From the UHGV virus genome UHGV-1961940: a stretch of 20,717 nucleotides of DNA. One strand, 5' to 3'. The notes beneath the pieces were generated by a model. That model worked only from the letters and a program-made list of their open reading frames with translations, made no database searches and had not been told where the DNA came from. The position numbers and the translations under genes are program-made. Positions 685 through 19,053 of the stretch are shown piece after piece (the first letter of the stretch is position 1; each line of letters starts with the position of its first letter). This DNA is from a virus.

Positions 685-710
685 AACAGTGATCTGGTTT
701 ACTGTTTCAT

Positions 711-1196: not shown

Positions 1197-1254
1197 ATAC
1201 AGTTCTCCTTAAAGGGGAGGCGGTTGTATTACCCCTCCCACTCTTTGTTAAACA

Positions 1255-3333
1255 TTAAAAAGGCGTTTCATCATCCTCAAAACCAGGGACCGGGTCAGAG
1301 GATGGATCATCGTACTGGAGGTCTTCCTGCGTGTCAACAGGCTTAACAGTAGGAGTTACAACCTTATCAGCCACAACCTTGCCCATAGGTGTTTCTACAA
1401 CTGCATGCTCCTGATCCTCAAACATAGCCTGAGGTCTCCAAACAACCTCCCCACCTTCTCCGTCTGTAAACATTTGCATTTCTTTGTCCCAGTACCAATT
1501 ACTGGCATCATGGAACTTACCTGTGTGCGGGTCCATAACCAAAGTGTCAGCAATACCTAGAGTTTTTGCTGGACGGTTTTTAAGACCTACCAGACGGACA
1601 CGTCCACGAGAACGATCCACCATTTCTTCGGCCTCGACACCTATGACTACCCAACTCAACTGTTCAAGCCCAGCCGATCCTCGCAAATTCTCTTTTCGCA
1701 CAGGATACCAGAAAGGTAATGGGTTACCATCCTTGTCCTTAGGGGGCACAATCTCTGTACGTTTGAGGTGAGCGATCACCAAGATAAACACGTTAAACTG
1801 CTTACAAAACGCAGCCAGTTGGGTCATAGCCATGTCCAGTTCTTTTCGCTCATCCTTAACATTAAGCCCTGAAATTACCATGGACAGGTGATCCAGCACA
1901 ATATAACGACAATGGTACAGGCAAACCATTTGCTTAAGCTTGGTAATCAACTCGTCCACTGGAATAGACCCGAAATGTTTGAACACTTTGATTTTTCCAG
2001 CTTTTGCCCATGATTGGTGAATCTCTGCGTGTTCTTGATCAGTTAAAAACTGGCTAGGATCTTCAACAAACTCTTTAACATCAAACCCTAACTGGTTTGC
2101 ATACAAGGAGTTAATTGCTTCCTCTGGGTCCTCCTCAAGATGAATCATGCATAGACGATCATCCTCTTCGTAATCATCAGCCTTTGGACATGTCGGGTCC
2201 ATTAGGTATCTTGCAATACAGTGTTCCAGTTTTTTAGCTACAGTTGTTTTACCGCCTCCTGATGGACCTGTAAGCATTACGAGTGTCCCTTTGTGCAAGC
2301 CTTTTAGCATTTTTTGCAGTTTTGGGAACTCTGCGCTGATATCTACCCCGTTGGAAGTCTTTTTCCGCAAAGATTCGATAGAGAAGTCTTCTAAATCCGA
2401 TACAGCATCCGGTACATACTTAACAGGATGCCGGAACATGTTTACAATATCTTCCAGCTTTTTAGCCTTCAGCATGTCACGGATATCTTTTACACCGTCA
2501 GGATCGTTTACTTCACCAGGGTACTCTACGTGGTAAACGTTATCAGCCATCAAAAATGCTGCGATATTGTGCGTAGCCTCAACACCTTTAATGACGTGTT
2601 TTTGCTTCTCTACCTCGTTAGCTGCATCGTTATCCATTGCCAGCACAACTGTTCCATAGCTACGGATAAACTTCTCATTGTTTGCAAAAGTATCTACTGC
2701 GTTTGCACATCCGCAGTTAATTCCAACAAAAGGTAGGCAGGGTTTTCCTGCCAGATCACCACCGTTGATAACTGCATCGATCCCGTCCTGTACCTCTTTA
2801 GCCCACTGCTTCACCTTTGCCGGGGCTTTAGCGTTGGTGAGAATCCCTTTTACTTGTATCTGATATGCAGCCTGCCATGCTGCAATAACATCACCTTCTC
2901 CCTCGCAAACGTTAATCTGCTTACGGTTGTTGGAAGATGCACACAGCTTTTGACCAAACATCTGGGAGTTAGCCTTTACGATGCCAACAACGGAGAAATG
3001 GCCCCTTTGCTCTTTAGGAATCGTCCAGTCGCGCTTTTTGAAACCGGACAGATTTCCGTAGCGGTCGTAATATGGGAAATATGTTGCAGTGACTGTCACA
3101 CCGTCTTCTTGGGACAATGCTGATCGCACACCAAAATATTGTGCAGCCATCAGACCGATATTTTGTTGTGGGACAGGGACAATTTTAGTATTTTCTAAAA
3201 CAGTCTCTACAGTTTCAACTTCTTTTTCATCACGATAGTCTCGTTTCACACTTCCCCCACTTTTATACTTAGTTGCTTTCGGGTTTGGCTCACCGAAACG
3301 GTTGTATGCAGATGCCATAAATTTACTTCCCAT
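1255..3333 (-). CDS. Bifunctional DNA primase-helicase (TOPRIM primase domain + DnaB/T7 gp4-like hexameric helicase)
   Basis: TOPRIM-like acidic motifs 'CEGEGDVIAAW' and 'VVLAMDNDAANE'. Helicase Walker A 'LTGPSGGGKTT', Walker B 'YIVLDHLSMV', and arginine-finger-like 'RGSAGLEQLSWVVIGVE'. RBS 'taaggagcagaattaATG'. No Cys4 zinc-ribbon seen N-terminal to the TOPRIM. Confidence 0.8.
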   Translation of the reverse strand: MGSKFMASAYNRFGEPNPKATKYKSGGSVKRDYRDEKEVETVETVLENTKIVPVPQQNIGLMAAQYFGVRSALSQEDGVTVTATYFPYYDRYGNLSGFKKRDWTIPKEQRGHFSVVGIVKANSQMFGQKLCASSNNRKQINVCEGEGDVIAAWQAAYQIQVKGILTNAKAPAKVKQWAKEVQDGIDAVINGGDLAGKPCLPFVGINCGCANAVDTFANNEKFIRSYGTVVLAMDNDAANEVEKQKHVIKGVEATHNIAAFLMADNVYHVEYPGEVNDPDGVKDIRDMLKAKKLEDIVNMFRHPVKYVPDAVSDLEDFSIESLRKKTSNGVDISAEFPKLQKMLKGLHKGTLVMLTGPSGGGKTTVAKKLEHCIARYLMDPTCPKADDYEEDDRLCMIHLEEDPEEAINSLYANQLGFDVKEFVEDPSQFLTDQEHAEIHQSWAKAGKIKVFKHFGSIPVDELITKLKQMVCLYHCRYIVLDHLSMVISGLNVKDERKELDMAMTQLAAFCKQFNVFILVIAHLKRTEIVPPKDKDGNPLPFWYPVRKENLRGSAGLEQLSWVVIGVEAEEMVDRSRGRVRLVGLKNRPAKTLGIADTLVMDPHTGKFHDASNWYWDKEMQMFTDGEGGEVVWRPQAMFEDQEHAVVETPMGKVVADKVVTPTVKPVDTQEDLQYDDPSSDPVPGFEDDETPF

Positions 3334-3483
3334 TAATTCTGCTCCTTACTACAGGCTCGTTTGCTAAGAATACAGCTTTTGCCCAGCCAATAACTGCACC
3401 ACCAGACCCGTCAAATAGACTCCACACAACACCTTTGTGGTAGTGTTCTTTGTAGATGAATTTCAATTTGCTGTCTCCTAATG

Positions 3484-3511
3484 CAAAAAGCCCCACCCTT
3501 TCGGGCAGGGC
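3484..3511 (-). terminator. Rho-independent terminator candidate (minus strand)
   Basis: Minus-strand RNA GCCCUGCCC-GAAA-GGGUGGGGC followed by UUUUUG: GC-rich stem with a 2-nt internal mismatch, tetraloop and U-tract. Sits immediately after the stop of ORF 3518-3724. Confidence 0.5.
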
Positions 3512-3517
3512 CTAGTG

Positions 3518-3724
3518 TTAAACCCGGATACCTATTGTATACTCGGTGGATACCAATGTCAAATCTAAATTTAAAATTTCTTGCATCTCATAATATGCGT
3601 CCAGGGTTAGATACATTTCCCCATCCTTTTCTACATACTTGTCCAAGTGCTTGAGGCATTTCGGATAACTATCAAGTGCAGCTTTCAGGCACTCAAACTC
3701 TGTGCTGTTGATGAATCCTTCCAT
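3518..3724 (-). CDS. hypothetical protein (68 aa)
   Basis: Track ORF in the same orientation and tightly packed with its neighbours. No motifs recognised. Confidence 0.45.
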   Translation of the reverse strand: MEGFINSTEFECLKAALDSYPKCLKHLDKYVEKDGEMYLTLDAYYEMQEILNLDLTLVSTEYTIGIRV

Positions 3725-3729
3725 CTTGG

Positions 3730-3996
3730 CTACCCGTTCTTAATGATAGCACTGTAGTGAGATTTAGCTTCCTGAATGCAATGGGTCCAAGCATCAACCT
3801 TCTCTTCGAAAAGTCCAAAGAACTTCTTTTTGGTGAGCTTCAGATTCTTTAAGTGCTTAAGCACTCGGTTGCCGATTACAGCCACATCACGAAACTTAAG
3901 AATCACTTTGTCGATATCCTCGCGACCTATTTTCACAAAACAGGCCTTACACATTTCAGGGGAGGAATAACCAACTTTCCACATAAAATCTGACAT
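3730..3996 (-). CDS. hypothetical protein (88 aa)
   Basis: Track ORF, stop 6 nt before the next start. No motifs recognised. Confidence 0.45.
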   Translation of the reverse strand: MSDFMWKVGYSSPEMCKACFVKIGREDIDKVILKFRDVAVIGNRVLKHLKNLKLTKKKFFGLFEEKVDAWTHCIQEAKSHYSAIIKNG

Positions 3997-4008
3997 ACCA
4001 CCTTCTCC

Positions 4009-4311
4009 TTATTCCTTAAAAGCTATGATATCATAGGAACTTGCAGATGATTCTGGTGAAGAATGACTCCAGTCCAGGTCATCAGAATAGTCAGCGTACT
4101 GTGCGCCACTACGCAGTTTGTATTTTACCCACTTACCTGGTGCAGGGTTTTCACCACCTTCCCATACTTCCCAGCCTTCTGGCAGGCCGTCCTGAGCGTA
4201 GTCATCCACCTCACTAATGATCTTAGGGTTTGGCACCAAGATCCCCGCAGGCTCTTCCTTCCGGATAAGTGTCCACACAGCGTATGTGTCTGAGCAGGCG
4301 CATGATAGCAA
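4009..4311 (-). CDS. hypothetical protein (100 aa)
   Basis: Track ORF on the operon strand; Trp/acidic-rich. An antisense ORF (4063-4293 +) and an overlapping one (4125-4322 -) are less likely. Confidence 0.4.
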   Translation of the reverse strand: MLSCACSDTYAVWTLIRKEEPAGILVPNPKIISEVDDYAQDGLPEGWEVWEGGENPAPGKWVKYKLRSGAQYADYSDDLDWSHSSPESSASSYDIIAFKE

Positions 4312-4402
4312 AGTATATCCACTATTCAGAACTTCTGCAAGCTCTTTTCAGCATCTTCCAATTTGGCTAAGTGGTATTGGATAATCTTCACACCTGTAAT
4401 CA

Positions 4403-4708
4403 TCAGAAACCTCCCACTTCTTCAGCAAATGCAGCTGCTGTCGTCGCTGCATCCAGATAGGACTCTAGTTCACGGGCTGCACGTTTGTAAATTGAGTGGC
4501 GCATATCGTTTGGCAGTTGGTGGGAGTCCACCTCTTCACCGTTGTGGTAAACATGCACATCGGTGATTTGTCTAAATCCGTAACAGTCAACATCAGAATC
4601 CCGGCACTCCGGATCTGGCAACTGAACAACTGCCTGAGCTTCCACAGTAAACATATCGTCAAGTTCGAAATCGATTTCAAAAGTGTATGGTTTATAACGT
4701 TTCATCAT
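4403..4708 (-). CDS. hypothetical protein (101 aa)
   Basis: Track ORF immediately upstream of the methyltransferase stop, same strand. Confidence 0.4.
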   Translation of the reverse strand: MMKRYKPYTFEIDFELDDMFTVEAQAVVQLPDPECRDSDVDCYGFRQITDVHVYHNGEEVDSHQLPNDMRHSIYKRAARELESYLDAATTAAAFAEEVGGF

Positions 4709-4721
4709 TTGATTGTACTCT

Positions 4722-6047
4722 TTATTGATCAGAATTATCTTTCGTAATTAAGGTCTGGGTAAGTTTGTAATAGCGGAAGCCACCGCCACCTTGCCAGCTT
4801 GCAGACTTAGAAATACCACCTTGATCTTCACCATCAATCACTTTTTGCAAGCGAGGGATAATATGGGTATGACAATGATCACCCAGTTCGATCAAGATCC
4901 AACGTCTTTTCATCTTGTGGGCTACAGCAGCAGTAGTTCCCGAACCGCCGAATGAATCCAATACCAAATCACCTTCTCGCGTACACATTTCGAGAATCCG
5001 CTTCAAAAGCGCTTCTGGTTTTTTTCCATTTTTGAAACTAACGCCGCCTTCATTTGCTATTCCATTCCAACTAATGTCTGTCCAAACATCAGTTATTAGT
5101 TCCGCAGGTTGCATCTCACCGTCAATTTCCAAAAGCCTGTTGGAGTAAAAGACCATTTGCCTACCATTTGCGATATAAAATCCTTCAACATCCTCATTCG
5201 GATGTACATAAACCTTATCCCTATCTTTCTTTGACTTCTCGATAGTTTCTTTTCTCTTTATTTTAGCGCCACCACCAATTGCAACAGATTGAAATACACG
5301 TTCTGCATTATCAATTGCGAATTGTGCTAATTCATCATCGAATGTATCAGGCAGTTTTTTCTTGGCTTCTTTTGCATCTTTATAGCCATTGGCCTTTGCA
5401 AACGCATCGGCAATACCGCACCACGTCCAATTTTTATAATGGTCATCCGGGTTTAATAGGTATTTGTTATATCCTGTATCATACCCTTTAGGTATATAGA
5501 TTTTGTTAAGCGGTTTCTGGGTGCGATCTTTTGCATATACAAGCAAAAAGTTTGCTGTGGAGAAAACTGTGGCTCCTGTTGCCTTAAATCCCGAAGGGGA
5601 ATTTGTGGTCATCGATATGGTATTTAACTGATTTGCACGACCAAAAATCTCGTCCATCAAAACTTTTAAATACGCCATTTCGCAATCATCTAAGTGAACG
5701 AATATTACCCCATCATCACTTAGAAGATTACGAATTATTTCTAACCTATCCCTCATTAAGCCCAGCCAAATGGAATGCTCCAGGCTATCATCGTAATGCT
5801 CAAAAGCCCTCCCGGTATTGAATGGTGGGTCTATGTAAACACACTTCACTTTGCCTGCATACTCTTGCTCTAGCGCCTTCAATGCTAATAAGTTATCTCC
5901 AAAAATCAGTTTATTATCAAAAATATCGTTTTCGGTCACTTTCTGGCTGTGGTAAGATTTGCTAGAATCTTCTAACAAAATGTGTGGCTCTAACTTTTTG
6001 CGCTCGTTTTTACCTATCCAGGTAAGTTCTAATTTGGTTTTGCTCAT
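4722..6047 (-). CDS. Site-specific DNA methyltransferase, beta-class (N6-adenine or N4-cytosine; Mod-like / N6_N4_Mtase family); apparently orphan
   Basis: Motif IV 'IDPPFN' near the N-terminus (residue ~73) and AdoMet motif I 'DSFGGSGTTAAVA' near the C-terminus, giving the beta-class permuted order. N-terminal 'MSKTKLELTWIGKNE' is typical of Mod-type methyltransferases. No restriction-endonuclease partner recognised among neighbours. Confidence 0.85.
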   Translation of the reverse strand: MSKTKLELTWIGKNERKKLEPHILLEDSSKSYHSQKVTENDIFDNKLIFGDNLLALKALEQEYAGKVKCVYIDPPFNTGRAFEHYDDSLEHSIWLGLMRDRLEIIRNLLSDDGVIFVHLDDCEMAYLKVLMDEIFGRANQLNTISMTTNSPSGFKATGATVFSTANFLLVYAKDRTQKPLNKIYIPKGYDTGYNKYLLNPDDHYKNWTWCGIADAFAKANGYKDAKEAKKKLPDTFDDELAQFAIDNAERVFQSVAIGGGAKIKRKETIEKSKKDRDKVYVHPNEDVEGFYIANGRQMVFYSNRLLEIDGEMQPAELITDVWTDISWNGIANEGGVSFKNGKKPEALLKRILEMCTREGDLVLDSFGGSGTTAAVAHKMKRRWILIELGDHCHTHIIPRLQKVIDGEDQGGISKSASWQGGGGFRYYKLTQTLITKDNSDQ

Positions 6048-6074
6048 CGTTTGGTGCTCTCCTTAGTTTTTTGT

Positions 6075-6091
6075 GGGGAGGAGGCCTCCCC
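6075..6091. other. GC-rich hairpin (GGGGAGG-agg-CCTCCCC) in the intergenic gap upstream of the methyltransferase start
   Basis: 7-bp perfect stem read directly. On the coding (minus) strand it is followed by an A-run rather than a U-run, so it is not a canonical terminator for the operon. Confidence 0.3.
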
Positions 6092-6108
6092 TTTATACTC
6101 ACATCTTA

Positions 6109-6492
6109 CTACTCAAGGTCTTCAGAGTCAAGCTCAAAAAGAATCAAACTGTGCATGCCTGCAGATAGATTAACACACCCTGCAACAATAAGGGTCTGAT
6201 AGTAAGGTTCAGCACCCTCAATGTCTTCGTTAAAATCCACAACAAGGTAGTCACCTTTGTTAAAGGTGTATTTGTCCGATGTAAACGCAAAACCTGCCCA
6301 GTCCCCTACTGCAGGGTCTTTATCAGTCACCTTTGTTAACAGTAGATCTTTTTCACGGGATCTTTTAGTAAAATCGTGAATCACAACATCCTTCTCTTCA
6401 GGAGTTGGATTGCCACACACGTAGTTAACTATATTTCTCCACAAACTCATACGTCCCCTCTTCGGCTCTGGTTTCAAAATCTTTCCTGACAA
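6109..6492 (-). CDS. hypothetical protein (<=127 aa; start uncertain)
   Basis: Track ORF begins with TTG at 6492 and overlaps the helicase 3' end by 68 nt. An internal ATG at 6450 would shorten the overlap. Confidence 0.3.
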   Translation of the reverse strand: MSGKILKPEPKRGRMSLWRNIVNYVCGNPTPEEKDVVIHDFTKRSREKDLLLTKVTDKDPAVGDWAGFAFTSDKYTFNKGDYLVVDFNEDIEGAEPYYQTLIVAGCVNLSAGMHSLILFELDSEDLE

Positions 6493-7816
6493 TTTTGTCT
6501 AAGTCAGGGAATGTTGTATTGTAAAACTCTACGACTCGCGGGTCAACAATAATGTCAACTTCTCTTAGTGGACGCAACAAGTTTATTCCTTGTATTGTCT
6601 TAACCCGACTCAAAGCAACATACGTCATCCCAGGAGAGAAAGCTCCGTTCTTTCCAAGGTCCAGGTTGTAACAATCTAGCGTAAGTCCTTGACTTTTATG
6701 AGATGTTACGGCATACCCAGATTTCAGAGGAAGTTGCCTGTATGACCCAATCACTACCCTCTCTATAAACTTCTCCATCTTCCTTTCTGCAATGTTGTAT
6801 CTCTGAGATGGCTTATACTCGTTATTTTCCCACAACCTCTGCTCTATGTCAACCTGTGTTCCATCTTCAAGCTCTACCACCACCGCCTTGTTCTTAAATT
6901 TAACAATTGTGGCACGTGTTCCGTTAACATAATAAGGTACTTTGTGCGTCGGGTCAACATCGTTGGCGGTTATCATAACTTTCATGCCAATTTTCAACTT
7001 CATCTCCTGCTCAACTGGCAGGGTGGAGGGAAACTTACCCTTCATTTCACCAGTGTATACCTTCTCTGGGGCGTTGATGGCATCATAGAACCTTCTGTTC
7101 ACTTCCTCTGCTTGTTTGTTGGTGGCGCAAATTGTGAGAGCGTCTGTTGGTACACCGCCTTTGTAACAGCGAGCATTAAGTTCTGCTACAACCTCTTTTA
7201 TGCGACGACCCTCACGAACACAGTTGAGCATTGTGGCAAATCGAATAGACTCCTGTCGGAACTGGTCTATTAGGGCTATGTTGTGAAGGTCCAGCTCTTT
7301 CCAAGATTCGGTATAGCAACATAGGTCTGTGTGGTAGAAGTTGAAGTAGGCCTCCTTCTCCATAGAAGAGACAACAGGAGGTGCCTGGTAAAAATCGCCA
7401 AACAATATGACCTGTATGCCTCCGAAAGGTTTGTCATTTTTTCGAAGGAAGCGGAGTTTTCTATCCATCTCTATAAACTTATCAGCACGGATCATAGAGA
7501 TTTCATCGATAATTAGGATGGTAAATGCCTTGCTTTTCAAAGGCTTTGCTGTTTTTGCCCTTATTGCAGTCCAGTCAGACTCCATGCTCACACCTGCTGC
7601 AAGATCGAAGGTTCGGTGTGCTGTTGCTCCATTAACGTTTAAAGCGGCTACCCCTGTCGGGGCAACCGTTATGCAAGAGTCTCCATACATTGACTGGATC
7701 ATGTTGATGAGGTACGTCTTCCCACAACCTGCGGGTCCTGAAACGAAGACATTCTCCCCACTCATGATTGCAACAAGGGCAGCATCTGTGCCTACATCAT
7801 ACTGCCCTTTTTCCAT
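6425..7816 (-). CDS. SF1B DNA helicase, Pif1/RecD/Dda-like
   Basis: Walker A 'VSGPAGCGKTY', Walker B 'ILIIDEISM', 'FGDFYQAPPV' motif, 'AVTSHKSQGLT' and 'YVALSRVK' C-terminal motifs characteristic of the Pif1/RecD/Dda family. Confidence 0.85.
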   Translation of the reverse strand: MEKGQYDVGTDAALVAIMSGENVFVSGPAGCGKTYLINMIQSMYGDSCITVAPTGVAALNVNGATAHRTFDLAAGVSMESDWTAIRAKTAKPLKSKAFTILIIDEISMIRADKFIEMDRKLRFLRKNDKPFGGIQVILFGDFYQAPPVVSSMEKEAYFNFYHTDLCCYTESWKELDLHNIALIDQFRQESIRFATMLNCVREGRRIKEVVAELNARCYKGGVPTDALTICATNKQAEEVNRRFYDAINAPEKVYTGEMKGKFPSTLPVEQEMKLKIGMKVMITANDVDPTHKVPYYVNGTRATIVKFKNKAVVVELEDGTQVDIEQRLWENNEYKPSQRYNIAERKMEKFIERVVIGSYRQLPLKSGYAVTSHKSQGLTLDCYNLDLGKNGAFSPGMTYVALSRVKTIQGINLLRPLREVDIIVDPRVVEFYNTTFPDLDKIVRKDFETRAEEGTYEFVEKYS

Positions 7817-9021
7817 TACGCCTCCTCGTAGATAATGTCGATGATGTTACCATCACGGTCAACTACGTATTCAATCGGATCGCCATCTTTGCGTGATTCC
7901 GGTGCTGCTACGATTTCGTAGCGGCATGCACGGCACTTAGCACTGTTGTGTTGGTATGGCACACTAACCACATCCGCAGGGTCAACCATAACCATCATTA
8001 CAGTGCCATAGCCCGCTGCATACTCTTTGCTGGCGCAGTGCAGGCCATAAGAACACGCAGCTTCCGGATCATCTTCTACAAAGTTACGAGGCATGGACAC
8101 AAAAGCACCCTGGTATTGTGGAACTTTACCGCTGTGCCAATCCACCCACCTGCTCCCGTTAAACTGAACCCCCTTATAGCAAATGATTCGACCATCTTCT
8201 GCAACCTGGATGTCATTAGCCTGCATGAAATCGTAGAGCATGTTCACAGATTTTGCAGACGGGTTGCGTAGCAGACGGACAAGGAATTTAACATATCGGT
8301 CGTCCAGTGTTCCATCTACATAATCTTCCTCAATTTTCTTTGCAATGGTGGATCGCATCTCTACACCGTAGTAGTAGAGCTTACCATCTTTCATGATCAG
8401 GTTGTCTGCAAGTGTGGTGAACTCATTCTTGCGTTCCAGCCAGACAAGGATTTCACCAATTGCCTCATCATATTCCTGAACAGAAATATGGTCGAAGACT
8501 TTCTGGTAAACTTCCTCACTTTCGCTGCGGCGAATTTCAAAAATGCCTTCGTTGCAGGTGATCTGGAGGAGTTCCCCGCAAATAACTACCAAAGGCTCGA
8601 TGCTTCGAGACTGTTGCTGAGACACACTGCTCACTACTTCCAGCACCGGATCTTTGACTTCTACTAAAGGTTCTTCTGACTTGATTGCTACCCCAGTGAA
8701 CCCCACACCGTGAACAACACACAGTGGGTATACCACGCCCCAACGTTTAACGGAACCTTCACCTGAATCTAAGATCATGGCGTACTTACCGTTGTCTTCC
8801 AGTCCGTAGCGGAATAAACGGGCCTCTTCGCGGGTTTCAAAATCCTCACGGGTATAGCAGACACTGTCTCGGTCAGGATCAAACAGCTCTGGGGCACCTA
8901 CTGCCAGTGTCCATGTTGTAGTACCTTTCTCAATAGCACATGTGAAACCCTTCTTCTCAAGTTCTGCACGGCGGTCGCGTGCTTCTTTACGAGTTTTGAA
9001 ATGTTCGTAGATGAAAATCAT
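7816..9021 (-). CDS. rIIB: rIIB-like protein
   Basis: C-terminal half aligns by eye to T4 rIIB as I remember it: '...NPSAKSVNMLYDFMQANDIQVAEDG...MPRNFVEDD...SYGLHCASKEYAAGYG...VDPADVVSVPYQHNSAKCRACRYEIV' against the T4 '...NPSQKAVSRLFDFLVANDIEITEDG...MPR...DDD...GLHVCSK...HPRDVVSIP...NDAKMRTCQYEVV' pattern. Lies directly downstream of the rIIA-like gene. Confidence 0.75.
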   Translation of the reverse strand: MIFIYEHFKTRKEARDRRAELEKKGFTCAIEKGTTTWTLAVGAPELFDPDRDSVCYTREDFETREEARLFRYGLEDNGKYAMILDSGEGSVKRWGVVYPLCVVHGVGFTGVAIKSEEPLVEVKDPVLEVVSSVSQQQSRSIEPLVVICGELLQITCNEGIFEIRRSESEEVYQKVFDHISVQEYDEAIGEILVWLERKNEFTTLADNLIMKDGKLYYYGVEMRSTIAKKIEEDYVDGTLDDRYVKFLVRLLRNPSAKSVNMLYDFMQANDIQVAEDGRIICYKGVQFNGSRWVDWHSGKVPQYQGAFVSMPRNFVEDDPEAACSYGLHCASKEYAAGYGTVMMVMVDPADVVSVPYQHNSAKCRACRYEIVAAPESRKDGDPIEYVVDRDGNIIDIIYEEA

Positions 9022-11951: not shown

Positions 11952-13136
11952 TTAAGCTTTAGCCAAAATGGCGCTAAACTCTTCACCAAACTCTTTTACA
12001 ATCTTCATCAGGTTTGGGTATGCTTTGATCAGCTGAGCAACAATCTTGTCACGCCCTTTACCGATAAGCAAGGCATTTCCTAAGGCATTAGGTTTCATCA
12101 TCGCCATAAAGACTGAGAATACAAAATCTCGGTTCTCGTCCTTGAAGTTTTCCCAAAGGAAATCGAGGAAGTTTGCCACGCAGCTGACAAGATCTTCGTC
12201 TGAGATACTTGCATTTTCCATCATATTGCGAATAGCGATACAACCTTCAGATCCAAGAATCCACAAAATGTCTGGCTGCTTAGGACCTACGTATTCTTTG
12301 CAGCCACCTGCCATAATCCGACCGATTTCCGGTAAATTACGTTTCTTGGTGTGGTAAGTCCAGATCTCTACCGCTGCAGTGTGACCAATAGCACCTTGTA
12401 GAAGAACACGGGCCATAGCGTCAGAAATAATACCGCTGTCAAAATCGTGCAAGATGTCAGATGCAGCAACCCAAGATCGTGGTGTGGCAAAAGATGGACA
12501 ATTAATCTCAGCCATAGCCTCATAATTATCAATAGCTGATGGAACTCTTTTCAGATACCCAATTACAGAGGAGTGAACCCCGTTGAGGAATGCGTAGTCC
12601 TCAATAAACACCTCTGCATTGCTTGTAACCTCTACAATGATAAAACGGTTAGCCAGAGGGGCTTCGAGCGCCGAAAGAACCGCACCATCTGTAGAACGGT
12701 TACCCGCAGCCACAAAAACAGAACCCTTAGGGAATGCATAGGTGCCGCACTTGTGGTCAAGCATAATTTGCATTGCAACCTTTTGCAGGTAGTTATCTGC
12801 ATGAGTGAGCTCATCCAGAAAGATAATTCCGCTCCAGTCAGGATCCGCAGGCCAAAATTCTGGAATTGCAAACACTGTACGTGTAGTTCCATCCGCTTCT
12901 ACAGGGATAGGTAGCCCAGATAAGTCGGCAGGATCTTTATCTGACAGTCGCACGTCAACAAGGTTGTCATCTCGCTCACCGAACATATTATCAGCGATCT
13001 GCTTCATCACCTGGCTTTTACCCACACCCATTGGTCCCAAAATTAGGACAGATCGGCTATGACGTTGGGCAAACTGAATAATAGCTGGCAACTCACGGAC
13101 AGTGATTTGACCACTTTCGAATACGTTTCTTGACAT
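11952..13136 (-). CDS. MoxR-like AAA+ ATPase (AAA_5 / CbbQ-NorQ-CobS-like)
   Basis: Walker A 'LILGPMGVGKSQ', Walker B 'IIFLDELTHAD', and a sensor-1 region 'VFVAAGNRSTDGA...LEAPLANRF' that resembles the MoxR 'ATxNP...L..A..DRF' pattern. Confidence 0.8.
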   Translation of the reverse strand: MSRNVFESGQITVRELPAIIQFAQRHSRSVLILGPMGVGKSQVMKQIADNMFGERDDNLVDVRLSDKDPADLSGLPIPVEADGTTRTVFAIPEFWPADPDWSGIIFLDELTHADNYLQKVAMQIMLDHKCGTYAFPKGSVFVAAGNRSTDGAVLSALEAPLANRFIIVEVTSNAEVFIEDYAFLNGVHSSVIGYLKRVPSAIDNYEAMAEINCPSFATPRSWVAASDILHDFDSGIISDAMARVLLQGAIGHTAAVEIWTYHTKKRNLPEIGRIMAGGCKEYVGPKQPDILWILGSEGCIAIRNMMENASISDEDLVSCVANFLDFLWENFKDENRDFVFSVFMAMMKPNALGNALLIGKGRDKIVAQLIKAYPNLMKIVKEFGEEFSAILAKA

Positions 13137-13405
13137 TAGTAAAAGTCCTCTACTTGTGTGTAAGTGTTTTCAAAGTTTTCCAAAACAGATATCACATCGA
13201 ATCTGTCAATATCATACGTGACTCTCCAGTTGTACGCAACCCTTTCTGCTGTTGCCTCTTCTGGCGCTAGTCGTCTGCTGGCATAAAAGAGTGTTGGAGT
13301 ACACTTTCTTGCTTGCCCTCTAACTTTCCCATAATAATATCTGTGAATATCTTTGTCAAAATTTAACTCTTTTTCTGCACGAAGTTCATATTGCTGGTAT
13401 AACAT
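13136..13405 (-). CDS. hypothetical protein (89 aa)
   Basis: Track ORF; its stop overlaps the AAA+ ATPase start. Confidence 0.4.
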   Translation of the reverse strand: MLYQQYELRAEKELNFDKDIHRYYYGKVRGQARKCTPTLFYASRRLAPEEATAERVAYNWRVTYDIDRFDVISVLENFENTYTQVEDFY

Positions 13406-14459: not shown

Positions 14460-14738
14460 TTAGGCAATTGTCATTTTACATTCTTGAAATTTTAACACAA
14501 GACGGTAATTGTGTCTAGTGTCTAAAAAGATTTTTTCAACCATCAGGCACACGGTATAACCGTCCATCTTGTTGACAACAAAATCTCCAGGATGAGGGAG
14601 GATGTCTCCCGGATTGGGGAAACATAGTCCACTCAGAAAGGCATCGTCAGTGGTGGACTTAATAGATTTCCACACACTGTCTGCCTGAACATGTTCACCG
14701 ACGTAATATACATTACCACATGCCTTCATCATAGTCAA
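14460..14738 (-). CDS. hypothetical protein (92 aa)
   Basis: Track ORF; ATGA overlap with the upstream 299-aa gene. Its TAA stop overlaps the RBS of the next gene. Confidence 0.45.
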   Translation of the reverse strand: MTMMKACGNVYYVGEHVQADSVWKSIKSTTDDAFLSGLCFPNPGDILPHPGDFVVNKMDGYTVCLMVEKIFLDTRHNYRLVLKFQECKMTIA

Positions 14739-15634
14739 ACCCTCGCATAAATTAAACTTGTATCAGTATACTTCTTTAATGGGTAAATATCCTGTCCATA
14801 GATGCAATCATTAAACACCTCATCTACCCAAAGGCTACACTTATATCCCATCATTTCTAAAACACCCATCTCTTCTTCGGTAAACTTATCACCGCTCTTG
14901 CAAGATGTCAATACCTCATTCTGAACTCTTGCTACCTCGAAGCGGTTATTGGCAATATCGCTATTGGCGATCAAATACTCACCTAGAGGGTGTGCGGCAT
15001 TAAAGATGCACAGTGGACGGCTGACGTAATAGTCTCCAGGTGTATAAAAATTGTTGAGGTCTTTCACTAGAACATTCTTATCAGTCACTTCATTTATAAC
15101 ATCATGCATATCGCACATCTTTATATGTTTGAGGATTCCATCCCCCATCACAAAATAAAAACTTGCTGAGACACTTTCGGCATAGATCTTACTAGATCCG
15201 TTGTAGTTGTATTTTACTCGGATGCTAACGGGGGTTTTTCCTGTCGCGTTAGCCATCATCCAAAGAAATGGCAGCTCATACTTCTCCTCTGAGGAAACAA
15301 AAGGTGAGGTAGCCAGAGATCGAAAACCTCCAGAGAAGTTGAAAGTTACAGAACCGCTCCGGCGGTATGATACCGCGTATTCTACTTTTATATCGACATA
15401 CCCATTGGAATAGGTGTGTCCTTCATTATCTAAATATGTCCACTTATCAGACCCAGATACCAATCTACGCTCAATAACCTTCATCACTATAGGAATTAAT
15501 GGGTTGGTACAAACCGCTTTTGAAGTAGCTTTATCATCTAAAGCCTCGTAAATTGCAGAAAGGATGTCCCCAGCTGAAAGATTGGTTGTTATGTCCTGTT
15601 TCCACCGCGTACTAAAACTGTTAAGATTTGCCAT
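14735..15634 (-). CDS. hypothetical protein (299 aa), first gene of the leftward operon
   Basis: AGGAG RBS 9 nt upstream of the ATG at 15634, and a near-consensus promoter directly upstream. No motifs recognised. Confidence 0.6.
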   Translation of the reverse strand: MANLNSFSTRWKQDITTNLSAGDILSAIYEALDDKATSKAVCTNPLIPIVMKVIERRLVSGSDKWTYLDNEGHTYSNGYVDIKVEYAVSYRRSGSVTFNFSGGFRSLATSPFVSSEEKYELPFLWMMANATGKTPVSIRVKYNYNGSSKIYAESVSASFYFVMGDGILKHIKMCDMHDVINEVTDKNVLVKDLNNFYTPGDYYVSRPLCIFNAAHPLGEYLIANSDIANNRFEVARVQNEVLTSCKSGDKFTEEEMGVLEMMGYKCSLWVDEVFNDCIYGQDIYPLKKYTDTSLIYARV

Positions 15635-15674
15635 AAGTAAGTGCTCCTATGTTAGTTTTCTTTCGAATGGGTGC

Positions 15675-15703
15675 ACTATATTGTGGAGTTAGAGTAAAGT
15701 CAA
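15675..15703 (-). promoter_or_regulatory. Sigma70/SigA-type promoter for the leftward operon (-35 TTGACT, 17-nt spacer, -10 TATAGT)
   Basis: Minus-strand reading 'TTGACT ttactctaactccacaa TATAGT': -35 at 15698-15703, -10 at 15675-15680, about 40 nt upstream of the ATG at 15634. Confidence 0.45.
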
Positions 15704-15721
15704 CACGTTTTTGATGTTGAC
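15699..15721. promoter_or_regulatory. Palindrome GTCAACA-N9-TGTTGAC spanning back-to-back -35 elements (candidate operator)
   Basis: Perfect 7-bp inverted arms at 15699-15705 and 15715-15721. The left arm contains the leftward -35; the right arm contains TTGACA (15717-22), which with 17-nt spacing to 'TACGAT' (15740-45) gives a possible rightward promoter. Confidence 0.4.
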
Positions 15722-16754
15722 ATCTGTTGAGACAATTGATACGATTTCTTCACTTACAGAGCACGAGAGACGACTCATGAATCTTGAAAAATATTATACA
15801 CCAGAAGAGTTAGAGCGCTTGCTCAAAAAATATAGACGCAAACAGAATAACGCACGGAAACGAGATATAGAGTTCGACCTGTCATGGGAAGAATACCTCC
15901 TATTTGGTAAAAAACTTTTAGGAGATGGAGTATGCGACTATACCCTTATACCTTTTGACATGCACACAGATGAAAACGGGCTGGGGAATCCTTTCTACCC
16001 ATCCCTGGAGCGGATAGATGATGAAGGTCCTTATGCGGTTGATAACTGTTGTGTGGTGGGATTGAGATGCAACTCTCTAAAGGACTGTCTGGTAGATAAA
16101 AAGACTGCAGTCTTGATTAAAGACGAAACTGATCGAAAAATTGTCCAGCAGATGATGCTCCACCTGAGCGAAGAGCGTATGGAGAAATTGAAAGGTGATT
16201 ATACTTTTGAAGATTTCATCTTGCAATATGGAACGGAAGAGGATAAACTAGCACTCTTTGACGAAGAAGAGGAGGAAGATATGCTACCGATGTCTAAAGT
16301 TACTTATCGTGCACCCAAGAAGCACATTTCCGACATTGTAAACGAGCCTATCACAGAAGAGATTGAAGAAATGACGCAACAGGTGCATGAAGAGGAAAAA
16401 GAGACTCAGGAGGTCGAAGAGGAGCTTACAGAAGAGGTTCCTGCACTACCTGATGATGTTGAGATTGCCAAAGCTTACACTTTCTATTGTCAAACGTTCT
16501 ACGATGTAGGTATGAAAGTTGATCTGTCGTTCAGCCAATTTAAGAGTTCGTATATTCGCAAATGCTGTGCTTTAACTGGTGAACGTCTTGGAGCTGGACT
16601 TAAACCCCTGTTGGTGACCGACTGGAATAAAGGTTTCACTAAAGGAAACTTTATGGTAGTATCTCCAATTATGAAGAAAGCTATGACAGATCTTATGAAG
16701 ACCACCCGCATGACAATGACCGAGTTGGCAGGTATTTTCAAACACGTTAAATAA
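15711..16754 (+). CDS. Hypothetical protein (347 aa by track): basic/Cys N-terminal domain with possible degenerate HNH/His-Me-finger-like motif, acidic linker, distinct C-terminal domain; start uncertain
   Basis: 'YRRKQNNARKRDIEFDLSWEEY...CDYTLIPF...PSLERIDDEGPYAVDNCCVVGLRCNSLKD' loosely resembles small phage HNH-type endonuclease domains, but with Arg where the catalytic His would be. Acidic runs 'DEEEEED', 'EEEKETQEVEEELTEE'. If the rightward promoter at 15717-45 is real, translation more likely starts at ATG 15777. An internal RBS (GGAGG) plus ATG at 16281/16290 coincides with the 29-bp repeat. Confidence 0.55.
   Translation: MMLTSVETIDTISSLTEHERRLMNLEKYYTPEELERLLKKYRRKQNNARKRDIEFDLSWEEYLLFGKKLLGDGVCDYTLIPFDMHTDENGLGNPFYPSLERIDDEGPYAVDNCCVVGLRCNSLKDCLVDKKTAVLIKDETDRKIVQQMMLHLSEERMEKLKGDYTFEDFILQYGTEEDKLALFDEEEEEDMLPMSKVTYRAPKKHISDIVNEPITEEIEEMTQQVHEEEKETQEVEEELTEEVPALPDDVEIAKAYTFYCQTFYDVGMKVDLSFSQFKSSYIRKCCALTGERLGAGLKPLLVTDWNKGFTKGNFMVVSPIMKKAMTDLMKTTRMTMTELAGIFKHVK
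16285..16313. repeat. Right copy of the perfect 29-bp inverted repeat (see 14423-14451)
   Basis: 'taccgATGtctaaagttacttatcgtgca' read directly; in frame it encodes (L)PMSKVTYRA inside the 347-aa ORF. Confidence 0.9.
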
Positions 16755-16759
16755 TGACA

Positions 16760-16774
16760 GGGGCCAATGGCCCC
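16760..16774 (+). other. Palindromic hairpin GGGGCCA-a-TGGCCCC between the 347-aa gene stop and the VWA gene
   Basis: Perfect 7-nt arms read directly, followed by a T-rich 'ttctggagtttta'. It contains the ATG at 16767, suggesting the real start of the next gene is ATG 16788. Confidence 0.3.
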
Positions 16775-18248
16775 TTCTGGAGTTTTAATGGATAGCAGAA
16801 GTTCAGAAATCATTGCCTCGCAGAAAGATGATGCCCTGAGAATGTTGCAGGCTGCACGTATGTATCTCCTTGAAAAGCTGCCGTTTTATGGCACACTACT
16901 GTCAGGGTTGCAGTTCGTAGAAAACCACACATGGTGCTCCACCATGGCAACCGACCATAAACGCATCTATTACAGTCCTGAGTTCATTATGGGATTGGCT
17001 GATGAACGCAAGGCTATTCTTAAGGCTTCTCTAACTGACGAGCAGTTTGAGATGGCTGAAGTTTTCTATTCTCCAAAATCTGTGAAAGAGGTGGCCTTCC
17101 TTCTGTCACATGAGGTGGGGCATATTATCTGTGATCACCTAGTCCGTGGTAAAAGCTTTGAGCCGGAACTGTTCAATATTGCTTGTGATCACGTTATCAA
17201 CACAGGCCTTGTGGTTGACTTTAGCAAACCTCCTTGTGTTTTCTTCCCGAAGGGGAAAAGCACTACGTTCATGAAAGGTAAGCCTTTTGGCTTCTTAGCC
17301 AGCTGCTACTGCGACATGAAGTTTCATGGATGGATTGCTGAGAACGTTTATGCAGTTCTTGATAAGCAAAGAGATCAGAATAACGGTAAAAGTAAGAACG
17401 GTAAAGGTGAGAACTCTCAAAGTGATAAGCGACAAACCGATGATCACATGAGTGGGAACGGTGGCACCAGTGATAATCTTGGAAAGGCTATGGGGTATGA
17501 TCAGCCACAACCTGTAATCAGCCAATCTGATAAAGATCAGGCCATGCAGGACTCTGGTGATATGCTGGAGGCAGCAATGCAAGCGTCCGGAGGCCGTTGC
17601 CCTGAGGCGGTGCGTGAGTTTGTCAAGAACAGAGGTAAGCCTGTAATCAACTATATAGACATCATTAAGCAACGTATGTTGTCTAAAAGAAAGGCCGAAC
17701 TGACCTACAGAAAACCTGGTCGCCGATCTGGGTCTTTGACCAGCACAATGCGAAAAGTTGGGGCTATAAACAAGAACCAGCACGTTATTGTTCCTGGTCG
17801 TAATCCGGAAAACACTATAGATATTGTGGTGGCTTTAGACGTTTCTGGCTCGATCTCTCAAAGAACTTTAAAGAAAATGTTCAATGAAATCACCGGATTG
17901 TGCAATCTGTATAAAGAGTTTAAGGTTACAATGTTCTGTTGGTCAACTGAGGTTGGAGAGGTTAAAGTATACACTCGCGGCAACATAGACGAGATGGTCA
18001 ACTATGAGGTCCACTCAACATGGGGCACAACAGCTGCTTGCGTGTTCGAGTATCTGGATGCCAACATACCTAATGCAAAAGATGTCATCGTCCTGACCGA
18101 CCTATACTTTGAGCATAACTTTGAACAAAAGGTTGTTGACAACAAGTGGAAAAAGTACGATACTCTATGGGTCCTCACTGAGGGGTATAATAAAAATTAT
18201 ATCCCGAGCTTTGGGAAAACTGTGGAATTAATCGAGTACGCTAAGTAA
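16767..18248 (+). CDS. VWA-domain protein with N-terminal putative HExxH metallopeptidase domain (DUF2201-like architecture); likely starts at ATG 16788
   Basis: Zinc-metallopeptidase motif 'LSHEVGHIICDHL'. VWA MIDAS motif 'VVALDVSGSIS' in the C-terminal half. GGAG 5 nt upstream of ATG 16788. Confidence 0.7.
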   Translation: MAPSGVLMDSRSSEIIASQKDDALRMLQAARMYLLEKLPFYGTLLSGLQFVENHTWCSTMATDHKRIYYSPEFIMGLADERKAILKASLTDEQFEMAEVFYSPKSVKEVAFLLSHEVGHIICDHLVRGKSFEPELFNIACDHVINTGLVVDFSKPPCVFFPKGKSTTFMKGKPFGFLASCYCDMKFHGWIAENVYAVLDKQRDQNNGKSKNGKGENSQSDKRQTDDHMSGNGGTSDNLGKAMGYDQPQPVISQSDKDQAMQDSGDMLEAAMQASGGRCPEAVREFVKNRGKPVINYIDIIKQRMLSKRKAELTYRKPGRRSGSLTSTMRKVGAINKNQHVIVPGRNPENTIDIVVALDVSGSISQRTLKKMFNEITGLCNLYKEFKVTMFCWSTEVGEVKVYTRGNIDEMVNYEVHSTWGTTAACVFEYLDANIPNAKDVIVLTDLYFEHNFEQKVVDNKWKKYDTLWVLTEGYNKNYIPSFGKTVELIEYAK

Positions 18249-18263
18249 GAGAGGAGGTTATTT

Positions 18264-18527
18264 ATGGCAACAGAGTTAAAATTTGCATCAAACCGTAAAA
18301 CTAAGAAGTATCTGTCCTCAGTAGCTCCAGGCACTGTGGTGATGTTTGTTGATGAACTTGGGGATGTGAATACAGCACTTGTTGTAAAATCACATCCTGC
18401 AAACATATATGTTGGGGTATTTGACCTGTTCAGAAAGGTGTTTGTAGAACTGCCTCACAGTTTGGTTGTTACAGAAATGGATGCCTGCATAGAAATTCTT
18501 GGCGAAGTTATGGTGGAGGAACAATAA
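18264..18527 (+). CDS. Small protein, paralog family member A (87 aa)
   Basis: RBS 'GAGGAGG' upstream. Shares 'MAT...F.S..K.KK...GTVV...VK...FDL...LP...VTE.D..I.ILGE' with the next ORF. Confidence 0.6.
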   Translation: MATELKFASNRKTKKYLSSVAPGTVVMFVDELGDVNTALVVKSHPANIYVGVFDLFRKVFVELPHSLVVTEMDACIEILGEVMVEEQ

Positions 18528-18790
18528 TGGCTACCAGCATTGTATTCAATTCTAAGGTGAAGAACAAAAAGCGTGCAGACAGTTTTCCGTGTGGGACCGT
18601 GGTAAGTTGCGACGGAGACGGCATTCAAAACATAGTTATGATTGTCAAAACAGGAGAACATTGTGTGTGGGGGTTCGATTTAGAAAATAATGAGTTGTAC
18701 GATCTGCCGCCAAACATGAAAGTTACAGAGCTTGACACCAAAATTACCATCCTTGGAGAGACAAGCTATTCAAAAGAAGGAGGAGAATAA
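18527..18790 (+). CDS. Small protein, paralog family member B (87 aa)
   Basis: Start overlaps the preceding stop; GGAGG RBS. About one third identical to member A by eye. Confidence 0.6.
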   Translation: MATSIVFNSKVKNKKRADSFPCGTVVSCDGDGIQNIVMIVKTGEHCVWGFDLENNELYDLPPNMKVTELDTKITILGETSYSKEGGE

Positions 18791-19053
18791 TGACCACAAA
18801 AATCACTATCGCAGAACCGAAAGCTAACACTCAGCCTATCGAAAAGTTTAAGTACGGTGAGGTGGTAACATTCACACCAGATAATGAAGATGCTAAGATT
18901 TTCGCAATGGTCACAGCTGAGTGGATGTGTGACAACACCACACAGGTTCTGCGTTTTGACACCTATCTTACCGATGAAATCAGGAACGACAAGATTGTGA
19001 CTGGTGTGGATACTGAGATTGTTTTCTACAAGAGCTTTTTAGAGGGTTTCTGA
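18790..19053 (+). CDS. Small protein, paralog family member C (87 aa)
   Basis: Same length and start/stop overlap; AGGAGG RBS. Shares the 'G.VV...V...FD...VT..D..I' pattern more distantly. Confidence 0.55.
   Translation: MTTKITIAEPKANTQPIEKFKYGEVVTFTPDNEDAKIFAMVTAEWMCDNTTQVLRFDTYLTDEIRNDKIVTGVDTEIVFYKSFLEGF

Follow-up and report, generated by a model that had tools for sequence, protein, structure and literature searches.

The gene 10/gene 11 intergenic region

The window analysed here, a stretch of 20,717 nucleotides from the virus genome UHGV-1961940, belongs to a Vequintavirus (an rV5/Murica-like coliphage), with positions 14700-16800 being 100% identical to phage Murica and matching 118 Vequintavirus records. 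The only sizeable intergenic gap, of 142 bp, separates the divergent gene 10 and Srd-like gene 11. Gene 10 (14735..15634, minus strand), which heads the leftward early unit in the open reading frame list, encodes a 299 aa homolog of the rV5 gene 10 product and is preceded by a ribosome binding site, AGGAG, at 15644-15648. Its product matches phrog_12338 over the full length (E = 2.5e-213), with zero matches in a Pfam search, and is named CPT_Murica10 or rv5_gp010 in related records, often with the label ‘putative alpha 1-3 fucosyltransferase’, the function being putative. Gene 11 (15777..16754, plus strand), at the head of the rightward early unit, encodes a 325 aa homolog of the rV5 gene 11 product, which matches phrog_3118 (E = 1e-112), phrog_4592 ‘decoy of host sigma70’ (E = 3e-13), and phrog_1400 ‘Srd anti-sigma factor’ (E = 2e-10). 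Database labels for this protein read either ‘anti-sigma factor’ or ‘HNH endonuclease’, and gp11 of rV5 is considered a probable Srd homolog by Kropinski et al. (2013, Virol J 10:76). The early timing of both units is suggested by their gene content, which includes rIIA, rIIB, helicases, and the Srd-like protein.

A hexamer scan places two candidate sigma-70 promoters in this gap, each with near-consensus hexamers matching 10/12 consensus positions, and each with a 17-nt spacer, within the 17 +/- 1 bp allowed for such promoters. The leftward promoter, TTGACT-17-TATAGT, has its -35 hexamer at 15698..15703 and its -10 hexamer at 15675..15680 (read 15703..15698 and 15680..15675 on the minus strand). 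Judging from the hexamer positions, transcription is predicted to start at the A 7 nt past the -10 box, at 15668 on the minus strand, giving a leader of 34 nt to gene 10. The discriminator, GCACCC, is G+C-rich and nearly invariant among relatives, with no variation in columns 15668-15674 in the first 11 aligned sequences and a single G->A change in ECML-10. Upstream, at approximately -44 to -40 of the leftward promoter, an A5 tract (15708..15712, minus strand) is likely to act as a proximal UP-element-like A tract, with the -45 to -40 positions being 37-53% A across the 62 co-oriented promoter candidates of the genome.

The rightward promoter, TTGACA-17-TACGAT, has its -35 hexamer at 15717..15722 and its -10 hexamer at 15740-15745 on the plus strand, with a predicted start, likewise placed from the hexamers, at the A 7 nt past the -10 box (15752, plus strand) and a leader of 25 nt to gene 11. 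The scan also flagged a TGn motif (TGa) at 15737-15739, forming an extended -10 element at 15737..15745, which was absent from the initial annotation of this region. The two predicted starts lie 84 bp apart and the -35 boxes are separated by 13 bp, with the promoters on opposite strands, their cores not overlapping, and the flanking genes diverging, as is characteristic of a back-to-back divergent pair. Each promoter faces its own gene at a distance compatible with a leader.

The -35 boxes overlap the two arms of a perfect palindrome, GTCAACA-CGTTTTTGA-TGTTGAC (15699..15721), with 7-bp arms at 15699-15705 (left, GTCAACA) and 15715-15721 (right, TGTTGAC), and a 9-nt spacer that is itself asymmetric and contains the A5 tract. 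The initial annotation had described a compact region in which one palindrome supplies the -35 elements of two divergent promoters; both promoters and the palindrome were found exactly as it gave them, and the description of a back-to-back, sigma-70-type pair is backed by position, orientation, and the pattern of conservation described below.

The promoter pair is already known as a pair of predicted early promoters, put forward independently for rV5 and for phage Gotham, and is orthologous to rV5 P010 and P011. Kropinski et al. (2013) reported bidirectional promoters in the region separating rV5 genes 10 and 11, with Table S4 of that study listing P010 (TTGACT...TATAGT) and P011 (TTGACA...TGATACGAT). 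P11 is also present as a feature in the rV5 record NC_011041, and both promoters are annotated by PhagePromoter, at identical coordinates, in the record of vB_EcoM_Gotham (MT682716). A literature search for a Vequintavirus or Vequintavirinae transcriptome or start-site map returned none.

Conservation of the promoters and of the palindrome

Conservation was assessed in an alignment of 21 Vequintavirus sequences, which share recent ancestry and hence are not independent. Extra variants were sought by scanning IMG/VR with gene 10, yielding two loci, and by scanning metagenomes with a pattern in which the -35 boxes were not required, yielding three contigs, one of which duplicates an IMG/VR contig. 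Across the 21 sequences, the four hexamers vary in 2/24 columns, compared with 29/48 columns in the spacers and the stretch between the boxes (Fisher p = 3e-5). Both -35 hexamers are invariant in 21/21 sequences (0/12 variable columns), and the 17-nt length of the spacer is kept in both promoters, again in 21/21. The leftward -10 hexamer has one variable column, reading TACAGT in Aya, and the third base of the rightward -10 hexamer alternates between C and A in relatives, with the extended TG remaining invariant. That the hexamers are near-invariant while the spacers drift supports the presence of two real promoters. Chance alone yields many consensus-like hexamer pairs, with 13 pairs of at least 9/12 found in 5.5 kb compared with 10.2 expected, so the case for the promoters has to be built on position and conservation. 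The comparative evidence presented here, which was absent from the 2013 prediction, confirms at the level of sequence two conserved, host-type promoters in the gene 10/gene 11 gap, with the conserved -35 boxes appearing to fit sigma-70, or another factor reading the same bases, alike.

The palindrome is conserved only where it coincides with the -35 boxes. Three of the four inner arm columns (15704, 15715, and 15716) are variable, compared with none of the 12 -35 columns (p = 0.007), and the perfect dyad is present in 13/21 relatives, these being the sequences that differ least from the window across the region, with all six of the more diverged sequences lacking the 7-bp symmetry. The right arm reads GGTTGAC in FV3, JEP1, A140, and L003, the arms read GTCAATA/GGTTGAC in the IMG/VR contig L004 and GTCAATA/GATTGAC in Aya, where the innermost pair is broken as well, and phita32, otherwise rV5-like, has lost the symmetry through a right arm of TATTGAC. 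The palindrome spacer is 10 nt in L003, corresponding to a 14-bp gap between the hexamers, with the 13-bp gap kept in the remaining 20/21 sequences. Among the distinct arm/spacer haplotypes, 5/6 are without 7-bp symmetry and one has the longer (+1) spacer, leaving the -35 pentamers alone as fixed.

Two opposed TTGAC boxes force 5/7 positions of each arm, and the remaining TG precedes TTGAC in 19/62 (31%) of the co-oriented early/middle promoter candidates, compared with a genomic TG frequency of 7%, making TG-TTGAC the commonest -35 form of the phage among these 62 candidates. A back-to-back pairing of two such promoters would yield a 7-bp palindrome approximately 1 time in 10. Perfect 7-bp inverted repeats with a spacer of 0-12 nt are in any case frequent in this genome, with 230 copies, or one per 589 bp. 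The palindrome is probably a by-product of two TG-TTGAC -35 regions that are divergently oriented across a 13-bp gap, with no separate function. More generally, back-to-back consensus -35 boxes necessarily read as a palindrome, and an operator call at such sites needs conservation or binding evidence.

Alternative roles of the repeat and coupling of the promoters

The initial annotation went on to propose that the palindrome is an operator, with a dimeric phage or host regulator bound to the 7-bp dyad occluding both -35 boxes and switching both units off (or on) together. A virulent phage must shut off early transcription somehow, the first rightward gene encodes an Srd-like ‘anti-sigma’ protein, and such an operator, if true, would provide a handle on early-transcription shut-off in these phages. 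The dyad covers both -35 boxes and is perfect in the window and in the 13 least diverged relatives, however its symmetry is lost in phita32 and in all six of the more diverged sequences, mostly without compensation. The left-arm C->T change of Aya is matched by a right-arm G->A change, as would be expected of a selected dyad, yet the C->T change occurs alone in the left arm of L004 and the G->A change alone in the right arm of phita32; as each of the paired changes arises singly elsewhere, no selection for symmetry is needed. The preserved 13-bp gap would likewise suit a dimeric protein, but L003 tolerates a longer spacer, the spacer is asymmetric, and the opposed boxes lie 3 bp apart in relatives from other genera. 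The arm itself amounts to the -35 consensus plus the TG usual in this phage. Furthermore, a search for a second dyad with at most 2 mismatches at spacing 9 found none in the 135-kb genome and none in a promoter context, whilst the genome-wide count of weaker dyads with other spacings, six, is close to a chance expectation of 2.5. The flanking genes show no match to an HTH or repressor family, and no repressor-like gene adjoins the site. An informal, by-eye comparison of positions 15690-15730 with the consensus sequences of Fis, CRP, FNR, LexA, PurR, and IHF likewise gave no convincing match.

The features expected of a dimeric-repressor operator of the lambda OR or tetO type, namely selected dyad symmetry across the 21 sequences, and an adjacent cognate regulator and/or further operator copies, were thus not found, and an operator was rejected as the main explanation on the basis of the alignment, the genome-wide dyad search, and the comparison with other genera. 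We consider it very unlikely that the dyad serves this role, and the initial interpretation as a whole is partly supported, with the promoters retained and the regulatory switch set aside for want of conservation beyond the -35 pentamers, of a second copy, and of a neighbouring repressor-like gene. An HTH gene does exist at a distance (Murica gp71), with nothing tying it to the dyad site. Some factor binding the -35 boxes themselves would be compatible with the sequence analysis. A phage-made reader of TTGAC, either a mimic of sigma region 4 or the Srd-like product, might for example dimerize on the opposed -35 boxes of this uniquely paired site and shut down both early units at once, and, if true, would give rV5-like phages an autoregulatory early-to-middle switch. 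Searches of the Srd-like gp11 for DNA-binding character returned no match in Pfam, none among PDB sequences, and nothing meaningful in NCBIfam. We regard such a reader as very unlikely.

The inverted repeat could also act through its structure, as a bidirectional intrinsic terminator, a cruciform, or a part of a replication origin at the switch in orientation and GC skew, although we find this scarcely credible. The repeat was listed as terminator-like on the minus strand by the consensus scan, however its stem is weak, with three G-C pairs in 7-8 and a loop of 7-9 nt, and the single-stranded DNA hairpin of -5.4 kcal/mol (z = -1.4) is equalled by 18/200 shuffles (9%), compared with the G+C-rich stems of -11 to -25 kcal/mol reported for rV5 terminators by Kropinski et al. 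(2013). The tract that follows the stem is just TTTACTCT, compared with the U tract that a rho-independent terminator would carry at the end of a transcription unit. Both predicted starts lie downstream of the repeat, and as no gene reads into the repeat there is nothing to terminate. A terminator or cruciform was rejected on the basis of this weak fold, and, for a terminator, the wrong position. The cumulative GC skew does reach a minimum at ~15400-15600, but a change of coding strand would by itself yield such a switch, and no iterons or repeat families were found in 15500-15900; a replication origin was rejected on these two grounds. A structured RNA was similarly rejected, with no Rfam match at E <= 1 in 15300-16100.

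The best explanation of the locus is a pair of sigma-70 promoters, back-to-back and without overlap, in a virulent coliphage of the rV5 type, together with a palindrome that has no separate function, a reading which we consider very probable. Immediately after entry of the DNA, unmodified host RNA polymerase carrying sigma-70 would bind each promoter and start two divergent prereplicative units ~84 bp apart. Besides gene 10, the leftward unit would encode an AAA ATPase, rIIA, rIIB, a Dda-like helicase, a DNA methylase, and a primase/helicase. The rightward unit would combine the Srd-like gene 11 with the gene of a DUF2201 metallopeptidase/VWA protein and a series of small ORFs. The strength of the leftward promoter would stem from its -35 (TTGACT) and -10 (TATAGT) hexamers and the upstream A tract, and that of the rightward promoter from its perfect -35 hexamer together with a weaker -10 hexamer extended by the TGn motif. 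This reading has little import beyond the quality of annotation, and the pair would start both prereplicative units of phages that are widely used in O157 typing, biocontrol, and therapy.

Any coupling of the two promoters would run through RNA polymerase itself, either by interference over DNA shared by the alpha C-terminal domains or by stimulation through transcription-driven negative supercoiling, such that the back-to-back geometry, and not the palindrome, would be under selection. This suggestion is compatible with the two-promoter explanation, to which it would add rather than replace, and topological coupling of back-to-back divergent promoters has been documented in bacteria (PMC5175336). 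The -40 to -60 region of each promoter consists of the -35 hexamer and spacer of the other, and the 13-bp gap between the hexamers differs by one helical turn from the 3-bp gap at the second divergent junction of the genome and from the 3-bp gap that Seunavirus and Avunavirus show at their Srd junction. However, this phasing is backed by just two or three independent examples and may be coincidental, a 14-bp gap is tolerated in L003, and the leftward boxes of the other genera are putative, scoring 8/12. Such coupling is a tentative proposal, rather unlikely on present evidence.

Comparison with known promoter systems

The closest counterparts are rV5 P010/P011 and the Gotham pair, which occupy the orthologous locus with the same hexamers (TTGACT/TATAGT and TTGACA/TGATACGAT) and the same 13-bp gap. 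Compared with rV5, the leftward spacer alone differs, by a few bases and with nothing substantial. The promoters are predictions in both of these sources as well, and the palindrome goes unremarked in each.

Beyond the genus, eight phages from other Vequintavirinae genera (PVP-SE1, 4MG, Av-05, Mydo, GAP31, Hena1, LNA4, and Kashira) have a TTGACA box ahead of the Srd-like gene, as part of a TTGACA-16/18-GATAAT-type promoter that is annotated in the PVP-SE1 record. As in the window, a strong promoter appears to head the Srd-like gene in PVP-SE1 (gene 218, anti-sigma) and its Seunavirus, Avunavirus, Mydovirus, and Henunavirus counterparts, and in most of these a gene diverges on the other side. 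In contrast to the window, these phages have a leftward gene with no relation to gene 10, the opposing box that best resembles a -35 hexamer (8/12) lies 3 bp from the rightward -35 hexamer or overlaps it, compared with 13 bp here, and the GTCAACA-N9-TGTTGAC dyad is absent.

The PRM and PR promoters of lambda, whose divergent sigma-70 starts lie roughly 80 bp apart, also form a back-to-back pair with dyad-symmetric DNA over the -35 regions. However, lambda carries three conserved 17-bp OR operators bound by dimeric repressors, with cI and cro adjacent, whilst the virulent phage studied here has one non-conserved 7-bp dyad and no neighbouring repressor gene. The non-overlapping divergent promoters of ilvY/ilvC and of dmp Pr/Po are similarly arranged, and each could feel the negative supercoils of the other; coupling has been demonstrated in those systems (PMC5175336) and is conjecture here.

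T4 early promoters are multi-element sigma-70 promoters, built from UP, -35, TGn, and -10 elements (Hinton 2010, PMC2988021). T4 is a distant relative, with each of the two promoters described here having part of this element set, and rV5-like phages are without homologs of AsiA/MotA and of gp33/gp55 (Kropinski et al. 2013). Both are virulent myoviruses that would rely on host sigma-70 at promoters combining near-consensus boxes, TGn motifs, and upstream A tracts, with homologs of rII and srd among the prereplicative genes expressed from them.

The predicted divergent promoter pair

The site lies in the 142-bp gap separating homologs of rV5 genes 10 and 11, with gene 10 (14735-15634, minus strand) belonging to phrog_12338, a phage-only family of function not known, and gene 11 (15777-16754, plus strand) encoding an Srd-like protein. 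Reading of the sequence from 15400 to 16000 and a consensus scan recovered both promoters proposed in the initial annotation, the leftward on the minus strand (TTGACT at 15703..15698, a 17-nt spacer, and TATAGT at 15680..15675) and the rightward on the plus strand (TTGACA at 15717-15722, a 17-nt spacer, and TACGAT at 15740-15745), and the perfect inverted repeat GTCAACA (15699-15705)/TGTTGAC (15715-15721) flanking CGTTTTTGA is likewise present as described. Each promoter scores 10/12 against the consensus, the leftward with a -35 box of 5/6, a -10 box of 5/6, and an A tract, and the rightward with a perfect -35 box and a -10 box of 4/6 extended by a TGa directly upstream, an element absent from the earlier description. 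The T5/A5 tract in the palindrome spacer matches the A-rich -45 to -40 zone of Murica promoter candidates (37-53% A), and is plausibly a proximal UP-like element of the leftward promoter. At the usual 7-nt distance, the leftward transcript would begin at A15668 and the rightward one at A15752, a separation of 84 bp, giving predicted leaders of 34 nt for gene 10 (ATG at 15634, preceded by an AGGAG ribosome-binding site at 15644-15648) and of 25 nt for gene 11 (ATG at 15777).

The minus-strand stretch 15653-15674, GAATGGGTGCAC, comprising the G+C-rich discriminator GCACCC and the start of the transcribed gene 10 leader (+1 to about +16), is unchanged in 20 of 21 relatives, with a single G->A in ECML-10, while the adjoining 17-nt spacer is variable at 13 positions. 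This invariance could stem from a promoter-escape constraint, stringent-type control, or a leader function. The best sigma-70-like match nearby, a leftward-facing TTGACA-17-TATTAT (11/12) at 13331-13359 on the minus strand, sits within an 89-aa ORF (13136-13405), outside any intergenic gap, and could be an internal promoter boosting the ATPase and rII portion of the leftward unit.

The pair is the ortholog of the published rV5 promoters P010 and P011, and so had been predicted before. In the rV5 genome paper, four transcription units are proposed and bidirectional promoters are placed between genes 10 and 11, with P010 (6636..6681, minus strand) given in rV5 Table S4 as CAAAAACGTG-TTGACT-TTACTCTAAATCTCCGA-TATAGT and P011 (6685..6713, plus strand) as TTGACATCTGTTGAGACAAT-TGATACGAT. 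NC_011041 carries P11 as a regulatory feature, and two PhagePromoter features of Gotham (MT682716) coincide exactly with 15675-15703 (-) and 15717-15745 (+) of the window, all of these entries being predictions; a literature search for start-site or transcriptome data on this subfamily found none. Our sole addition is comparative evidence that argues for selection on the promoters and for the palindrome as a by-product.

Conservation of the promoter elements

Hexamer pairs scoring at least 9/12 are no commoner than in shuffled sequence (13 observed against 10.2 +/- 3.2 over 5.5 kb), so that a consensus match alone proves little, and the case for the promoters rests on position and conservation. 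The alignment of the gap covered 21 Vequintavirus sequences: the window itself, 15 phage records from GenBank, two contigs from IMG/VR, and three from metagenomes, of which one is a duplicate of an IMG/VR contig. None of the 12 columns of the two -35 hexamers varies, and only 2 of 24 vary across all four hexamers, compared with 29 of 48 in the two 17-nt spacers and the stretch between the -35 boxes (Fisher p = 3e-5). Among the first 11 sequences, 13 of 17 leftward spacer positions are variable with the length kept. Fixed hexamers with drifting spacers are what one would expect if the -35/-10 promoters are functional. The rightward promoter also predates the genus Vequintavirus, with a TTGACA-16/18-GATAAT/GATACT/CATAAT promoter (10-11/12) found upstream of the Srd-like gene in eight phages of other genera (PVP-SE1, where it is annotated, 4MG, Av-05, Mydo, GAP31, Hena1, LNA4, and Kashira), whose Srd-like proteins share 30-39% identity with gp11.

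The palindrome and other readings of the gap

The initial annotation suggested that a dimeric regulator on the palindrome could occlude both -35 boxes and switch the two units together, an operator role that is not borne out since the symmetry is not kept among the 21 sequences. The perfect arms GTCAACA/TGTTGAC occur in 13 sequences, all little changed from the window in this region, ECML-10 included; FV3, JEP1, A140, and the relative L003 (the last with a 10-nt spacer) carry GTCAACA/GGTTGAC, phita32 carries GTCAACA/TATTGAC, the IMG/VR contig L004 and its duplicate carry GTCAATA/GGTTGAC, and Aya carries GTCAATA/GATTGAC. Three of the four inner arm columns are variable, against 0 of 12 -35 columns (p = 0.007). 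The left-arm C->T of Aya is paired with a right-arm G->A, however each change is also found singly (C->T in L004, G->A in phita32) and the innermost pair of Aya is broken as well, so that the pattern requires no selection for symmetry. A genome-wide search gave no second GTCAACA-N9-TGTTGAC at up to 2 mismatches; looser dyads at other spacings number six against about 2.5 expected by chance, with no promoter hexamers at them, and the genome has nine back-to-back GTCAA-N0-25-TTGAC pairs, this one alone being flanked by a -10 box on each side. Other genera have their best opposing -35-like box at a distance of 3 bp from the -35 of the rightward promoter (AATCAA-GTG-TTGACA in Seunavirus, GTCAA-CGC-TTGAC in Av-05), and the second divergent junction of Murica (65412-65513; 15412-15513 of segment L022) reads TTTCAA-GTG-TTGACA, sites that could not serve a regulator adapted to a 9-nt separation between the arms. 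Family and sequence searches revealed no resemblance of the gene 10 and gene 11 products to DNA-binding repressors. The site thus lacks the defining features of an operator that were tested (a conserved dyad, a cognate regulator, and further copies), and the operator was rejected as the main reading. A separate and very improbable reading is that the two -35 boxes, as a pair, are recognised by a phage factor that shuts off both units.

The palindrome instead appears to be a by-product of the paired -35 boxes. Of the seven arm bases, five (GTCAA/TTGAC) correspond to positions 1-5 of the -35 consensus, read on one strand or the other, so that any back-to-back pair of good -35 boxes forms a 5-bp palindrome. 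The two further bases are TG at -37/-36, a dinucleotide found directly before TTGAC in 31% (19/62) of the co-oriented early/middle promoter candidates of the complete Murica genome; its frequency is 14% before TTGAC pentamers that have no -10 box and 7% genome-wide, and the rV5 promoter table agrees (8/26). The heptamer TGTTGAC has 66 copies in the genome, two such promoters both with TG are expected about one time in ten, and the genome has one perfect 7-bp inverted repeat (spacer of 0-12 nt) for every 589 bp.

The hairpin is of unexceptional stability (-5.4 kcal/mol, z = -1.4). A terminator was excluded, the stem being weak, a proper T tract missing, and no gene reading into the palindrome; rV5 terminators are G+C-rich, at -11 to -25 kcal/mol. 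No Rfam family matched. A replication origin is not indicated, because the cumulative GC-skew minimum (about 15400-15600) coincides with the switch of coding strand and iterons are absent from the site. The 3-bp gap at Murica 65412-65513 and at the Seunavirus/Avunavirus Srd-gene junctions (L013-L015 and L019, about 1420-1440) differs from the 13 bp in the window by one helical turn, which may be due to chance or to a phasing that two polymerases favour.

Flanking genes and the putative early units

Over positions 14700-16800 the window shows 100% identity to Escherichia phage Murica, with 118 Vequintavirus (rV5-like) records matching at 80-100% identity. From about 8000 on, the window runs colinear with Murica at full identity (window coordinates exceeding those of Murica by 9031); its left end is unlike Murica, with one of eight 50-mers sampled from 1-8000 present in KT001917, at another offset, which points to a mosaic close relative of Murica as the source. 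The helicase/methylase region appears to be the site of divergence or indels. Sixteen unannotated 'Campylobacter phage' records (MG0656xx accessions among the matches listed) share 96-99.6% identity with this region of an E. coli phage, with Campylobacter jejuni the stated host in 15 and the record of A140 flagged UNVERIFIED; these look like mislabelled or contaminating Vequintavirus genomes and not a true host jump.

The gene 11 product has no Pfam, NCBIfam, or PDB sequence match and is tied to Srd and endonuclease VII-like families by PHROG links only. Its public labels clash ('anti-sigma factor', 'HNH endonuclease', 'anti-termination protein', 'hypothetical'), and one record places 'putative alpha 1-3 fucosyltransferase' on the gene. 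Leftward, gene 10 is followed by small ORFs, an AAA ATPase, a SleB-like hydrolase, rIIA, rIIB, a Dda-like helicase, a DNA methylase, and a primase/helicase, and rightward, gene 11 by a DUF2201 metallopeptidase/VWA protein and many small ORFs; from this gene content both strings look prereplicative. ATPase/VWA pairs usually work together, and here the MoxR-like ATPase (rV5 gp4 homolog, phrog_1297; 11952-13136, minus strand) and the VWA-like protein (gp12 homolog, PF13203 and PF09967; 16767-18248, plus strand) are divided between the two units, which the promoter pair would co-express. Three successive plus-strand ORFs of 87 aa each (18264-18527, 18527-18790, and 18790-19053) represent a tandem duplication of a small early gene (phrog_10698, function not known), the first two being paralogs (39% identity, E = 1e-12) and the third showing no BLASTP similarity to the first.

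In the mechanism we propose, host sigma-70 holoenzyme would bind both promoters on incoming DNA and then launch the two divergent prereplicative units. Sequence, position, conservation, and earlier annotation of the pair are shown; its use by host polymerase, the early timing, and the start sites are inferred. With the -35 boxes only 13 bp apart, the upstream region of each promoter is the -35 box and spacer of the other, so that some interference over alpha-CTD contacts is conceivable, as is a stimulation by the negative supercoils that transcription generates, an effect known from bacterial promoters arranged back to back (PMC5175336). By analogy, the pair would work as early promoters of the T4 type do, here arranged back to back, the likeness to the T4 early promoters, described as UP/-35/TGn/-10 promoters that outcompete those of the host (PMC2988021), lying in their mix-and-match element design, and that to lambda PRM/PR in geometry only.
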